Assembly: GCA_963710375.1 (NCBI GenBank)
Contig: CAVPZX010000008.1
Location: 32,001 to 96,000 of the forward strand
Reading direction: 5' to 3'
Source: Nitrospirota bacterium
GTDB taxonomy: Bacteria; Nitrospirota; Thermodesulfovibrionia; Thermodesulfovibrionales; Dissulfurispiraceae
DNA length: 64,000 nt
Shown: piece after piece, positions 22 to 4,067 of the stretch
Position numbering within the stretch: position 1 is the first letter of the stretch
Layout: each line of letters opens with the position of its first letter
The notes under the pieces: model-generated
Told to the model about the DNA's origin: nothing
Database searches by the model: none
What the model saw: only the letters and a program-made list of their open reading frames with translations
Program-made: the position numbers and the translations under genes

Positions 22-525
22 ATGGCAGTTGTTTACGACAGAAAAGGCCGTCCGGATGCGACTTATACAAAAACGCACTCTTTTCCCCTGTCCCAGGAGG
101 TTGAGCGGTTTATTGAAGGGACAGAGAGGGTCGTCTTTAATATTGATGCAATGCCTTCCAGCGTCTTTATCTGCTATGATTTGAGGTTCCCTGAGCTTTT
201 CAGGGATGTTGCAGGACGGGTAAAGGCGATATTTGTAATAGCCAACTGGCCTTCCAAAAGAAAGGACCACTGGGAAACACTGCTCAAAGCGCGTGCGATA
301 GAGAACCAATGTTTTGTGATAGGAGTAAACCGCACCGGAGTTGACGGCAACGGTATCGTGTATCCAGGCGCTTCCCGAATTTTTGGTCCATTTGGAAATA
401 CCGTCTGTTCCGGCGATGATACCGAAGAATTCATAACCTGCGAGTTCGATCCCGTCGAGACAGACCGTGTACGGTCTGCATTTCCTTTCCTTTTGGCCCG
501 TGAACAATCACAAAAGGAGAAATGA
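22..525 (+). CDS. Carbon-nitrogen hydrolase (nitrilase/amidohydrolase) family protein, probably 5'-truncated by the window edge
   Basis: Motifs YTKTH, ICYDLRFPE, ARAIENQCFVIGVNRTG. Confidence 0.9.
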   Translation: MAVVYDRKGRPDATYTKTHSFPLSQEVERFIEGTERVVFNIDAMPSSVFICYDLRFPELFRDVAGRVKAIFVIANWPSKRKDHWETLLKARAIENQCFVIGVNRTGVDGNGIVYPGASRIFGPFGNTVCSGDDTEEFITCEFDPVETDRVRSAFPFLLAREQSQKEK

Positions 526-532
526 CCTGCGT

Positions 533-1225
533 ATGACGACCCAAAAAAATATTAATAAGATAGCGATATTGGCTGTAATCATATTACTGATCGCCGCATT
601 TAAGATCTTTGGGCTTGAACAATATCTCAGCCTTTCCTACCTGAAGGCCTCTCAGGAAAAGTTCGCGCTTCTGTATGCTGAACATAAGATACTTGTAATA
701 GCCGGTTATATGATTATTTATATTATTGTCACGTCGTTATCATTGCCGGGAGCAGCAGTGCTCACCCTGGTGGGAGGGGCGCTCTTTGGTTTAGTGGCCG
801 GGACACTTATCGTATCTTTCGCCAGCACCATAGGTGCGACCTTTGCATGCCTTGCCTCACGGTTCGTATTAAGGGATTGGGTACAGTTGAAATTCGGCGA
901 CAAACTGTCGGCTGTTAACAAAGGCATAGAAAGGGAAGGCGCCTTTTATCTCTTCACGCTTAGATTAATTCCGATCTTTCCTTTCTTTGTCATCAATCTT
1001 GTCATGGGTCTGACAAAATTACCTTTGCTGACATTTTATTGGGTATCGCAATTGGGGATGCTTCCGGGTACTATGGTTTACGTGAATGCGGGGAAAGAGC
1101 TTGCAAAGGTCAATTCTCTATCCGGCATTCTGTCTCCCGGATTGATCTTTTCATTTGCGCTCCTCGGATTATTTCCGATAGCAGTCAAAAAGATAATGGC
1201 GTTTTATAAACGGGATAAAAGTTAA
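533..1225 (+). CDS. TVP38/TMEM64 (DedA/VTT domain) membrane protein
   Basis: LSLPGAAVLTLVGGALFG and LRLIPIFPFFVINL motifs; start moved from 467 to the ATG at 533. Confidence 0.88.
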   Translation: MTTQKNINKIAILAVIILLIAAFKIFGLEQYLSLSYLKASQEKFALLYAEHKILVIAGYMIIYIIVTSLSLPGAAVLTLVGGALFGLVAGTLIVSFASTIGATFACLASRFVLRDWVQLKFGDKLSAVNKGIEREGAFYLFTLRLIPIFPFFVINLVMGLTKLPLLTFYWVSQLGMLPGTMVYVNAGKELAKVNSLSGILSPGLIFSFALLGLFPIAVKKIMAFYKRDKS

Positions 1226-1236
1226 AAAAATATTGA

Positions 1237-1416
1237 GGGCTCGCGAATAAATAACTTGCACATTGATGCATCTCAGATTTAGGCCATCTTTGCCAGATCC
1301 TCAGTCGCAAAATCCTCAACGTAGCTATGCTACGCCTGCGGTTTTGCTCAGTCGGATCATCCAAATCTGACCCAAATCTGTGCGCCTGAATGCACAAGTT
1401 ATTTATTCGAGAGCCC
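1237..1416. mobile_element. 180 bp palindromic MITE-like element, copy 1
   Basis: Terminal inverted repeats GGGCTC(G/T)CGAATAAATAACTTG; the whole element is an imperfect palindrome around CGTAGCTATGCTACG; homologous copy at 9937-10118. Confidence 0.85.
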
Positions 1417-2649
1417 TACGGAGAGATCAAAGGTCCTGAGAGCGTCTTCATAAATGCCTCGATCTGTAAAAGTTCTTCATCAGTCAGGTCCTGATGCTCC
1501 ACTTGAGTGCTTGAACTCATCCTGTAGAAAAACATTACATCTTCCAGGGACTTGGATTGCCCCGCATGCATATAGGGTGGCCGCTCTGCAACATTTCGTA
1601 ACGTTGGGGTCTTGAATGCTCCTATATATTTGCTTTTGTCCTTGTCTATGAACCTCAGTTCGCTGCATTGATCAGGCTTGGCATCGCTGTATTTACCGAG
1701 ACAGTTGAACTCATCAGAAAGCACCTTGCCAATGCCCTCTGCCCTGCCCTTATCCTTTCCATTGTCCAGCCCAATGTCGTGAAACTCGCCGTTCGTAAAA
1801 AGCGGACCCATGTGGCAGGTGATACATTTGGCTTTTCCGATGAATAGTCGCAATCCTTCGACTGCATCGCGGCCCATTGCCTTGTCCGCAGCCGCCTGGT
1901 CGTTCCTGAGTACTGCATCGGCATACAGGTCGAACGGCGCGGGAGAAGGCACTATCCTCCTCACATAAGCTTCGATCGCCTTGCCGATATTCGCGTAGAC
2001 CCTGTTGACAGCGTACCGGTCAGCCGGTTTCATCGCCTTCCAGAGCTTGAGCGCAACTGGATTACCTGTTCCAGGGCTTGCCTTCGGAGGACAGACTCTT
2101 GTGGGTTATCTTCGGGAGACTGCCGAATATCTCAGTGTATTCGTTCTTGTATTTGTCGATTATCAGGTGTGCGCAGTAAGAACGGGTAATGCCATGCTCA
2201 GGAACGCTCTCGATCGGTCCAATGGCCTGAGACCATAAGCTGTCCTTCCTGCCATCCCAGAAGAACCAGGACTGATAGGCTACACCGATGAGCGGCATGG
2301 TCCTTCGAGTATTGGTGCCCATGCCCCTGGCAAGGGCAAATCTGTCAGTGAATGAATATTCCGGAATATGACAGGTGGCGCATGATATCTTCCCGTTGGC
2401 GCTGAAACTTTTATCGAAGAAAAGCTTCTTCCCAAATTCTATCGCCTTGGGGTTATCTGCATAAGCGTTCGACGGGTCAGGGGGCAGCGGCGGAAGCGAG
2501 GCAAGAGAGAGGGAGCGTATCACATTCTTGTCTTCCTCGCTCCACTGATGAATCTGTTGGAGGTCCTTGTCCGCGGCCATGCCAGTGCTGCCTGCGCCCA
2601 TAATCGTAAAAGAAATGAGGACAAGCGTCAGAAAAGTAAACCGGGCCAT
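1416..2649 (-). CDS. Di-heme cytochrome c peroxidase/MauG family protein, split by a +1 frameshift near 2095
   Basis: ORF 2062-2661 has a signal peptide, CATCH and FFWDGR; ORF 1416-2033 has CITCH and FKTPTLRNV..RPPYMH; the alternative frame VCPPKASPGTGNPVALKLWKA joins the two; GGAGG RBS before the ATG at 2649. Confidence 0.9.
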
Positions 2650-2679
2650 GATAACCTCCAACTCCGCTTTTGCATAAAA

Positions 2680-3459
2680 TTACTTCAACATGAGGTTGAA
2701 GGAAGTATTGTCGGTTTTTCCGCCAGCGTTGACACTGACGTTGACCACCCACCATCCGGACATACTGAACTTCATTCCTTCCACAAGGTAGGTACCATCG
2801 CCGTAGTTCTTTGTGACCTTGGGCTGTGTAGGCATACCATGACCGTGTTCCGGCATGGTCCCGCTAACTGTAATCTTCGCATCCTTGACCGGTTTGCCGT
2901 CAGCAGTCTCAACCTTGAGTTTCCAGGACTGGAGCTTGTTAACCGGCACAGTCTGGAGATCACTTGTGTATGTTACCTTGAATGTTCCTGCCTTCGAAAC
3001 CATCGTCTTTGCGTAAGCAGCATCAGAGGTCGGCTTTACCATAGCGCTTGCGGAGCAGTGCTTGCATTTGCAGTCTTTACCACAATTGCAGCCACCCTTG
3101 CCGTCACTCTTGCAGTTGCACTTTCCCTTGCCTGTTTTGCAATGTTCGCACTTGCAGTCCTTGCCGCACTTGCAGCCCTTGCCGTCACTCATACAATTAC
3201 AGCCTTTGTCCCCTGCTTTGCAGTCGCAGTTTCCCTTGCTGCACTTTCCGCACTTGCAATCTTTCCCGCACTGGCAACCATTTCCGTTTTTACCGTTCTT
3301 GCAGTTGCAATCACCCTTGTCTGTCGTGCAGTTAGCGCATTTACAATCCTTACCGCAGTCGCATTTTGCGGCGGCATCGACCGTTCCTATTATCGGCGCA
3401 CATGTCATGGACCCGATAAAGAGAACGGCAAGAAGAATGACTCCAAATTTTTTCAGCAT
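2680..3459 (-). CDS. Exported protein: Cys-rich metallothionein-like repeat region fused to a YtkA/FixH-like domain
   Basis: N-terminal hydrophobic signal; residues 33-135 hold 28 Cys; C-terminal MPEHGHGM...GTYLVEGMKFSMSGWW resembles YtkA/FixH; GGGGG RBS-like run upstream. Confidence 0.82.
   Translation of the reverse strand: MLKKFGVILLAVLFIGSMTCAPIIGTVDAAAKCDCGKDCKCANCTTDKGDCNCKNGKNGNGCQCGKDCKCGKCSKGNCDCKAGDKGCNCMSDGKGCKCGKDCKCEHCKTGKGKCNCKSDGKGGCNCGKDCKCKHCSASAMVKPTSDAAYAKTMVSKAGTFKVTYTSDLQTVPVNKLQSWKLKVETADGKPVKDAKITVSGTMPEHGHGMPTQPKVTKNYGDGTYLVEGMKFSMSGWWVVNVSVNAGGKTDNTSFNLMLK
3055..3363 (-). repeat. Four tandem coding repeats CxCGKDCKCxxC with CxC-containing linkers
   Basis: CDCGKDCKCANC, CQCGKDCKCGKC, CKCGKDCKCEHC, CNCGKDCKCKHC. 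Confidence 0.95.
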
Positions 3460-3516
3460 AATTACCCCCCTTTAATTATGATTGTATAATTGTAAAACAG
3501 GACACCTTATTTATAG

Positions 3517-3550
3517 GTAGAAGTATACTCTACAACAACAAATATTGCAA
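3517..3550 (-). promoter_or_regulatory. Sigma70-type promoter with an inverted repeat over the -10 box
   Basis: TTGCAA (3550-3545), 17 bp spacer, TATACT (3527-3522); imperfect palindrome GTAGAAGTATACTCTAC at 3517-3533. Confidence 0.6.
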
Positions 3551-3641
3551 TAAACTGGGTGTATGCAAGTCAGACATTACGGGGTTGTTTTTCTGCAGGG
3601 GGTGCCCAAGAAGTCGGCAGACTTATTGAGGAAGAGGTGAG

Positions 3642-3676: not shown

Positions 3677-4067
3677 TTAGCTATATTGACGGTTATCGCA
3701 ATATCTGACGCAAAGGTGCCTGAAGGTGTGATTATATCTTATATGTAATTTATTTCCCAGGAAATTGGAATTAATCCACATACATGCTGTTTAATAACCC
3801 TCGGAAATCCCAATAAACCAAGAAGATAACACATTGTCTTGCCTAGTATAATTCTTGCATGATAGTCAGTTGAGGATAAGACATGCGACCACAGAAAAAT
3901 AGGAGGGAATACTGATGAGCTGGTTATGGCGTTTATGGTTTTGGCTGATGTGCGAGGGCGATAAGGTTACACCGGCAACCACAAGCATAGCGCTGGACGA
4001 CGACTATTCGCCCGTTCCGGTACCGCTCAGCGCTGAGTATAATTACTACTTTGTCGAGGACAAGGAC

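Follow-up and report, generated by a model that had tools for sequence, protein, structure and literature searches.

Closest described systems and the locus analysed

Bacterial metallothioneins (MTs) are described, in the parts of PMC7558416 and PMC12193353 drawn on here, as rare, small and cytoplasmic, with SmtA adopting a zinc-finger fold. Csp1, as presented in extracts of PMC7558416 and PMC11672702, is a rigid four-helix bundle that is exported by the twin-arginine translocation (Tat) route and holds many Cu(I) per chain. For fungi, the portions of PMC4755600 used here give the Neurospora and Agaricus MT pattern as X2-CXC-X5-CXC-X3-CXC-X2-C-X3, and state that in the MTs of Cryptococcus and Tremella tandem copies of a seven-Cys unit bind additive Cu5 clusters. 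Here we describe a gene that joins a signal peptide, a Cys-rich repeat and a YtkA-like domain, and the MauG-type di-haem enzyme gene that follows it, in a 64,000 nucleotide stretch of a Nitrospirota bacterium genome (assembly GCA_963710375.1, contig CAVPZX010000008.1, positions 32,001 to 96,000), referred to throughout as the window. The encoded protein is predicted, with slightly better than even confidence, to store Cu(I) in the periplasm in an array attached to a copper chaperone; that it binds metal through thiolates in some form is a prediction we regard as likely.

The two partners of the repeat also have described relatives. CrdA is a periplasmic Met-rich copper protein according to the sections of PMC9182242 consulted, and YtkA domains of Bacillus subtilis support CuA assembly in the account given in part of PMC13344008. 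MauG-type enzymes are characterised in passages of PMC11892367 as scavenging peroxide poorly and spending it on the oxidation of partner proteins. The pairs MbnH/MbnP, SACCP/MopE and CorB/CorA, as outlined in excerpts of PMC3621798 and PMC11951088, each combine a MauG-type enzyme with a copper-binding partner that has a kynurenine copper site. A search of the full-text literature, from which subscription papers mostly fall outside, returned no description of the window protein or of a YtkA and MauG-type pair.

The features of the two-gene unit are listed below, with the evidence for each in brackets.

2680..3459, minus strand: gene for signal peptide, Cys-rich repeat and YtkA domain, 259 aa (open reading frame (ORF) call, selection, identical contigs in sequencing runs)
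3367..3459, minus strand: predicted Sec/signal peptidase I (SPI) signal peptide, residues 1 to ~31 (rule-based scan)
3055..3363, minus strand: Cys-rich domain, residues 33–135, 28 Cys in four seven-Cys blocks (translation, Cys spacing)
3328..3363, minus strand: core 1, CxCxxxCxCxxC, residues 33–44 (motif)
3241..3276, minus strand: core 2, residues 62–73 (motif)
3139..3174, minus strand: core 3, residues 96–107, His preceding the last Cys (motif)
3055..3090, minus strand: core 4, residues 124–135, His preceding the last Cys (motif)
2683..3024, minus strand: YtkA-like immunoglobulin (Ig)-fold domain, residues ~146–259 (Pfam PF13115, Foldseek, structure alignment, hmmsearch, conservation)
1416..2661, minus strand: MauG-type di-haem cytochrome c peroxidase-family gene, CCP_MauG (Pfam, alignment, run contigs)

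The Cys-rich domain is built from a seven-Cys unit

The original prediction, made from the window sequence, described residues 33–135 as a Cys-dense domain rich in Lys, Gly, Asp and Asn and free of aromatic residues. A recount from the translation of 3055–3363 (minus strand) agreed, giving 28 Cys, 23 Lys, 19 Gly, 11 Asp and 9 Asn in 103 aa and no Phe, Trp or Tyr. At 27% Cys and without aromatics, the domain has the composition of metallothioneins (about 15–35% Cys in CxC and CxxC, few or no aromatics). Four CxCGKDCKCxxC cores were located where they had been placed, beginning at residues 33, 62, 96 and 124; CxxC occurs four times in total and CxxCH is absent from the window protein, so the reading of the domain as something other than a c-type cytochrome stands. 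CxC spacers link the cores as had been proposed, but not uniformly: the order is core-CxC-core-CxC-CxC-core-CxC-core, so that four CxC lie outside the cores and the stretch from core 2 to core 3 has two of these. The core pattern occurred six times in the 6.38 million residues of the six-frame translated genome, four of these in this domain, and more than two cores arose in 0/100,000 shuffles of the 103 aa. At the DNA level the repeat copies were just 64–79% alike while the Cys spacing was fixed. This divergence shows the array to be old and rules out assembly collapse or stutter as its origin.

Comparison of 101 homologues of similar length showed that array size ranges from none to six units, in line with the modular, tandemly expanded array of varying repeat number that had been proposed. 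Cys totals were taken from 47 full-length Cys-bearing homologues, a set from which zero-Cys members, four N-terminal fragments, P0101 and P0102 were left out. The total was 7, 14, 21, 28, 35 or 42 in 36/47 of these relatives, which are not independent of one another, and was odd in 19/47. The Cys region of the family averaged 26.7% Cys and less than 0.1% Tyr. With A for the five-Cys core and b for a CxC outside it, the arrays of clean members include Ab, AbAb, bAbAbA and AbbAbA, and that of the window protein is AbAbbAbA. A and b were equally numerous in the clean members, whatever their order. The repeat unit is thus seven Cys, a five-Cys core plus one CxC in either order, and from the equal numbers we infer that a core and one CxC from either side would make up one cluster. 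The spacer from CxC to core was 6–8 residues in 92/97 cases (6, 7 and 8 for the first spacers of the window protein) and that from core to CxC was 6 in 109/118, giving a family block pattern of CxC-x6..8-CxC-x3-CxC-x2-C.

The AlphaFold model of the full protein had a predicted local distance difference test (pLDDT) mostly below 50 across the Cys region and no predicted helical bundle; a two-core piece reached a mean pLDDT of 65. The low predicted order of this region is as expected for an apo-metallothionein. A sequence search of the PDB with the Cys domain gave no matches at E values up to 10, and a two-core profile retrieved from the PDB just p300 TAZ (E 0.29) and wheat Ec (2kak, E 0.37), neither significant, and no fungal MT. 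A fold search with the two-core model (mean pLDDT 65) found no match in pdb or pdb_via_wide, which says nothing about fold novelty. The ESM Atlas returned no usable match for the window Cys domain. For the stand-alone form of the repeat, described below, its matches all scored below 0.9, and two of them, named 'Metallothionein family protein' and from Myxococcota, serve as leads.

The ORF is a selected, predicted exported gene

In comparisons with three relatives, the dN/dS of the Cys region was 0.17, 0.45 and 0.19; of the 28 Cys, 28, 27 and 28 were kept through eight, three and seven synonymous Cys codon changes, respectively. This purifying selection shows the ORF at 2680–3459 (minus strand) to be a real gene. 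Three plus-strand ORFs, 2548–3489, 3048–3335 and 3062–3475, were rejected as shadows, as selection falls on the minus frame. Two studies supplied three public DNA runs whose contigs have the ORF letter for letter, and the source sample may itself be among them; the public runs containing most of the stretch are soil metagenomes. The genome measures 3.19 Mb with a completeness of 98.8%, and its closest relatives with named records are Nitrospirota, mostly Thermodesulfovibrionia-type metagenome-assembled genomes.

Residues 1 to ~31 have a basic n-region, a hydrophobic core and an Ala-rich cleavage region, without a Tat motif or lipobox, and so a signal peptide of the Sec type is predicted, as befits the exported protein first envisaged. 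In the same rule-based scan of 56 homologues, 54 had a basic n-region, 55 a hydrophobic core and 43 an AxA-like site, and Tat motif and lipobox were each seen in 0/56. A lipoprotein reading through Cys20 was rejected, Cys20 being unconserved and the lipobox absent.

Export also bears on whether the blocks hold iron-sulfur clusters or rubredoxin-type iron, a role the original prediction had kept in view. The CxxC pairs and the anaerobe-leaning lineage would suit it. Periplasmic iron-sulfur proteins are as a rule Tat-exported, whereas none of the 56 homologues had a Tat motif; no iron-sulfur family in Pfam matched any of 13 proteins at E values up to 10, and to our knowledge CxC-dense spacing is no ferredoxin motif. 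We regard iron in the blocks as very unlikely.

Comparison with known metallothioneins and copper stores

The closest block pattern is that of the fungal seven-Cys copper-thioneins (Neurospora crassa and Agaricus MT, CnMT1/CnMT2, TmMT), which likewise have seven Cys per block arranged as CxC and CxC-x3-CxC-x2-C, amplify the block in tandem, place small residues and Lys between the Cys and lack aromatics. The window block differs from the Neurospora pattern in its first spacer by one to three residues (6–8, not 5), and, unlike the fungal proteins, the window protein has a His before the last Cys, a signal peptide, a fused YtkA domain and a bacterial host, and no Pro doublet. Sequence searches of the PDB gave no match to a fungal MT, and convergence is as likely as descent.

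With the plant Ec (type 4) and type 1–3 metallothioneins the family shares the CxCxxxCxCxxC core. We know of no plant metallothionein with tandem seven-Cys arrays, a signal peptide or a YtkA domain. The eukaryote-type likeness that had been proposed was borne out by weak Pfam matches. PF02068 (plant Ec) was matched by 11/13 proteins scanned and was the most frequent Pfam resemblance, all scores lying below the cut-off of 31.8 bits (best 25.4 bits, E 1.7e-5; window domain 15.5 bits, E 0.022), and P0102 exceeded the cut-off of PF01439 (26.7 vs 23 bits). PF02069 (SmtA/BmtA) gave no match at E values up to 10 among 13 proteins. The family therefore differs from SmtA/BmtA/PmtA in lacking a PF02069 match, while resembling these and MymT in being rich in Cys and small residues and in having His.

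Csp1/Csp2 are the closest functional precedent, being exported, as is predicted here, and Cys-rich. They are pre-folded and carry a Tat signal, whereas the window protein is Sec-type, repeat-built and predicted to be unfolded without metal, and neither a Tat motif nor a helical bundle was found for it. The 259 aa window fusion is not a small stand-alone polypeptide, though relatives of 63–117 aa are. The window protein thus belongs to neither the copper-thioneins, Csp1 nor SmtA/BmtA. It is set apart by the fusion to a chaperone domain at either end, by the strict seven-Cys count over 0–6 blocks and by the enzyme partner. The original prediction had missed the YtkA/CrdA-type fusion, the two-gene unit with a MauG-type enzyme, the seven-Cys unit and the zero-repeat orthologues.

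The YtkA-like domain and the MauG-type enzyme

The C-terminal domain matched PF13115 at 58 bits (cut-off 25.9, E 1.5e-15) and was modelled confidently by AlphaFold as an Ig-like sandwich. The closest solved structure was Helicobacter pylori CrdA, available in apo and silver-bound forms (Foldseek E 2.6e-7). Structural alignment with CrdA gave Z 14.1 and a root-mean-square deviation of 1.9 over 100 residues, the next rows having Z 9.6. The profile also found CrdA by sequence (hmmsearch E 5.6e-5), aligning MPEHGHG with the Met loop of CrdA and the later Met with its Met. The PF13115 match, Ig-like fold and Met loop with a later Met are shared with the YtkA family as a whole (CrdA, B. subtilis CtaK (YtkA), the C-terminal domain of YcnJ). 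The loop of CrdA is all-Met, however, whereas that of the window protein has two His, and CrdA lacks the N-terminal Cys array and W236. M202, H205, H207 and M233 were invariant in 31/31 and 46/46 aligned sequences, the set of 46 having been partly chosen by this motif, and form a candidate Met2His2 copper site. W236 was present in 98/100 phmmer hits; another residue takes its place in CrdA (Thr), in the paralogues linked to Cus and, in proteins with tandem YtkA, in the N-terminal domain. Two other YtkA genes in the genome, with all-Met loops, lie ahead of a CusCBA-type efflux operon. The window gene differs from the described YtkA family in being linked to a di-haem enzyme and not to a resistance-nodulation-division (RND) pump or oxidase operon.

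The enzyme gene begins 19 bases downstream of the YtkA gene and is broken in the window into 2062–2661 and 1416–2033 by a one-base discrepancy at 2095. As the contigs of three runs (short-read assemblies) lack one base at 2095, the frameshift is most likely an assembly error. Among the best 80 of 278 GTDB loci, 72 had the enzyme gene directly after the YtkA gene (62 by ORF adjacency, 10 by tblastn), three had it elsewhere in the locus and five lacked it, one of which ends 250 bases past the YtkA gene. Cys-bearing loci numbered 11 in this set; the enzyme was present in 9 and absent from 2. The locus search pattern included W236, so its linkage to the enzyme is biased. The pair was found in Nitrospirota, Chloroflexota, Desulfobacterota and others.

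Two CxxCH, the inter-haem Trp (in FWDG) and a Tyr, the residues that mark a MauG-type bacterial cytochrome c peroxidase, are present in 45 of 45 enzymes aligned. This Tyr aligned with residue 294 of MauG and with a Met of the Nitrosomonas europaea cytochrome c peroxidase, both of which we take to be haem ligands. Scored on its split halves, the partner enzyme reached 58–62 bits against the MbnH model TIGR04039 (cut-off 363) and 65–87 against the MauG model TIGR03791 (cut-off 444), and the sums were also far below. Like MbnH/MbnP, SACCP/MopE and CorB/CorA, the unit consists of an adjacent Tyr-ligated di-haem enzyme and an exported (here predicted) partner with conserved Trp, His and Met; unlike MbnP, which has a WxW motif, the window partner has the YtkA fold and WW. 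This analogy is suggestive only, and makes W236 a candidate for kynurenine-type oxidation by the partner enzyme. Fusions of YtkA with the peroxidase, or other longer fusions (455–2000 aa), were found in none of 1859 candidates, which is weak evidence.

In loci with tandem YtkA domains and the peroxidase but no Cys array, the next genes often encode a fusion of YtkA with a multicopper oxidase, a VTT protein and a flavoprotein resembling mercuric reductase (L059, L065, L076, L088, L109); other such loci (L032, L033, L118) adjoin CopD, NosL and a His-rich exported protein.

Distribution, absence and stand-alone forms of the repeat

Searching with the repeat unit, as had been suggested, the two-core profile returned just 10 proteins among 1.84 billion representatives, all with the repeat. 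They comprised the CrdA-like YtkA family, a second YtkA protein with a C-terminal repeat (P0102 and its kin) and stand-alone proteins made of a signal peptide and the repeat. P0102, P0111, P0112 and P0114 thus carry the repeat at the other end of a different YtkA domain; in P0114 (349 aa) the YtkA domain and three blocks are followed by a different Cys-rich tail of more than 100 residues. Among 390 genomes of the class, 19 matched the profile, three of them through a different Cys-rich family, leaving 16 carriers in three families of one order.

A stand-alone locus with one, two or three blocks (63, 90 and 117 aa) between identical flanks accounted for 6 of the 10 metagenome loci returned, the other 4 being unrelated to it. 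The stand-alone blocks are near-identical, and part of this series could therefore be short-read collapse. Upstream of the stand-alone genes (L147–L152) are msrAB and an esterase-like gene, and their stop codon is followed by a hairpin. In another genome of the same genus as the window (G003, L046/L023) the orthologue is frameshifted just past the Cys array, which splits off the YtkA domain, by error or in reality.

At least 11 close orthologues share the signal peptide and YtkA domain and have zero Cys, and one cluster at 90% identity includes forms with 0, 2 and 5 blocks. A quick tree of 69 YtkA domains (116 columns, many forks open) needed 10 changes for the no-repeat state, at least two of them forced by strong branches. 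Given these zero-repeat orthologues, the repeat is an optional accessory to a pair of YtkA and peroxidase genes that is older than it.

This pattern could point to a dispensable low-complexity linker, expanded by slippage and serving no selected function: orthologues without a unit fall inside clades of strong support that also contain forms with 2 and 5 units, and carriers are patchy (the 16 of 390 above). The dN/dS of 0.17–0.45 with Cys retained through synonymous change, the fixed Cys spacing of units so diverged in DNA, and the maintenance of stand-alone genes with signal peptide and repeat largely refute this explanation, which we consider the least probable of those weighed.

A second exported Cys-rich family occurs in the same class, with two to three units of approximately YxCxCGxxCxC-x7-GxCxCG, short folded-looking spacers and no Pfam name (L028:6431-6808(+), L074:4659-5096(-), L036:6474-6971(-), L038:6744-7121(-), L136, L139, L140). 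It lies near a YtkA/peroxidase pair in two loci and was not found in the source genome.

Proposed function, metal and thiol state

In the function that we favour, a periplasmic Cu(I) store, the Sec system would export the chain unfolded and the metal would therefore be loaded in the periplasm, where each seven-Cys block would fold round its own small Cu(I)-thiolate cluster. By analogy with the fungal seven-Cys proteins, a block might hold ~5 Cu(I) and the window protein ~20, repeat number setting the storage capacity. Copper could be exchanged between the array and the Met2His2 site of the YtkA domain, and the array could hand it on to copper enzymes of the periplasm, for instance the genome's own CuA-type oxidase, or buffer an excess. 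The genome encodes a caa3-type oxidase with CuA and Sco, together with another CuA-like protein; no multicopper oxidase was found in it. The ORF of oxidase subunit I (region G000:C3:83547-85073, L121) has an early end and an atypical tail, suggesting another one-base assembly error. We consider it doubtful that a wider periplasmic module exists, of which the papers searched give no account, in which the MauG-type enzyme oxidises W236 to kynurenine for a copper site, in the manner of MbnH acting on MbnP, an accordion of Neurospora-like seven-Cys blocks that comes and goes in whole units stores ~5 Cu(I) per block, and the block also acts by itself as an exported metallothionein of 63–117 aa.

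Besides the zero-Cys orthologues, several observations weigh against a copper store. The core also occurs in the zinc-binding plant Ec metallothionein, which the recurrent PF02068 resemblance recalls, and the core has a His in 133/139 cases. His is a common zinc ligand. A spacer of exactly 5, as in Neurospora, was seen in 3/97 family spacers and not in the window. The two-gene unit sits in varied gene contexts: across the 17 Cys-bearing loci, which include near-duplicates, CopC/CopD was near one, and NosL and multicopper oxidase stood beside none. Heme-copper oxidases exceeded the cut-off in 249/390 class genomes and, being so common, cannot single out repeat carriers. Upstream, the best inverted repeats beat shuffles in just 4/17 regions, with AT-richness as the sole common trait, and no Cys-pair ORF with PP, as in a CutF/CruR-like leader, was present across 19 upstream regions. 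A VKOR match was found in 7/15 other carriers (two strong), the genome has DsbA/DsbC-like proteins, and all 45 of the 45 partner enzymes have an extra Cys pair that may be a disulfide.

The His and the likeness to plant Ec, including the 2kak match, would suit a periplasmic sponge for zinc, cadmium, mercury or silver, with a metal unrelated to that of the YtkA domain (one possibility being Zn2-3 per Cys7His block), as would the finding that the stand-alone forms adjoin no copper gene. Yet both known repeat fusions are to YtkA/CrdA-type domains with soft Met/His sites, genes for zinc uptake or efflux never recur beside Cys-bearing loci, and additive seven-Cys blocks are the copper-thionein pattern in the portions of PMC4755600 used here. 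The Cys pattern alone, given its likeness to both fungal and plant metallothioneins and its core His, cannot choose between copper and zinc; copper is preferred because of the fusion partners and the enzyme pair, and we judge the sponge for other metals unlikely.

The VKOR matches and the Cys pair of the partner would fit a thiol redox buffer or disulfide domain, which would absorb peroxide or feed electrons to the di-haem enzyme whenever oxygen reaches these bacteria of mostly low-oxygen settings. A disulfide role had been left standing beside metal binding in the original prediction. The partner gene does belong to a peroxidase family, MsrA occurs within 3/17 Cys-bearing loci vs 0/69 others, and the stand-alone form comes after msrAB. 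Loci with Msr are few, however, and mutually related, and the partner has the MauG Tyr, the mark of a class that the cited passages of PMC11892367 call poor at peroxide scavenging. Nor does a peroxidase gene stand beside the stand-alone forms or 2/11 Cys-bearing GTDB loci, and odd totals in 19/47 members with a strict 5+2 count suit a cluster better than pairs. DsbB and VKOR were both missing from the 98.8%-complete genome, which has a DsbD/CcdA-type membrane protein; DsbB was found in no repeat carrier and in 20/390 class genomes. Full disulfide bonding of the array is disfavoured by the odd Cys totals and the genome's lack of DsbB/VKOR. A redox role is thereby weakened, and we rate it as a rival of rather low probability, somewhat below that of the sponge.

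Neighbouring elements

Two further features lie on either side of the two-gene unit.

467-1225, plus strand: VTT/DedA membrane protein gene, converging on the peroxidase gene (Pfam)
3522..3550, minus strand: sigma-70-like promoter candidate, TTGCAA-17-TATACT (consensus match alone, not exceeding the chance level of the region)

A VTT gene was near the pair in 4/17 Cys-bearing loci and 6/69 others. Between the converging peroxidase and VTT genes, positions 1236–1417 hold a 180-base element that forms one long hairpin (z -7.3). It gave 70 BLAST pieces in the genome and a very high summed depth in related runs, and looks like a miniature inverted-repeat transposable element (MITE) or a repetitive extragenic palindromic (REP)-type repeat. 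Two more dispersed repeat families, with copies on at least seven contigs, were found in the upstream intergenic region at 3564–3598 and ~3740–3860.

Implications

If the copper store is real, a thionein made of repeats and exported through Sec would demonstrate that metal-thiolate clusters can form in the periplasm, here in a lineage mostly without DsbB. Whether a metallothionein prefers copper or zinc is a long-standing question, and the natural series of one to six blocks, in both orders, would offer a test bed for how the seven-Cys block relates to cluster size and to this preference. Among the di-haem enzymes there is an uncharacterised branch for which the YtkA-like protein paired with the MauG-type gene is a candidate substrate. 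Should the three-part module hold as well, one operon would contain a natural, exported, modular bacterial copper-thionein together with a new fold class of MauG-type substrate.

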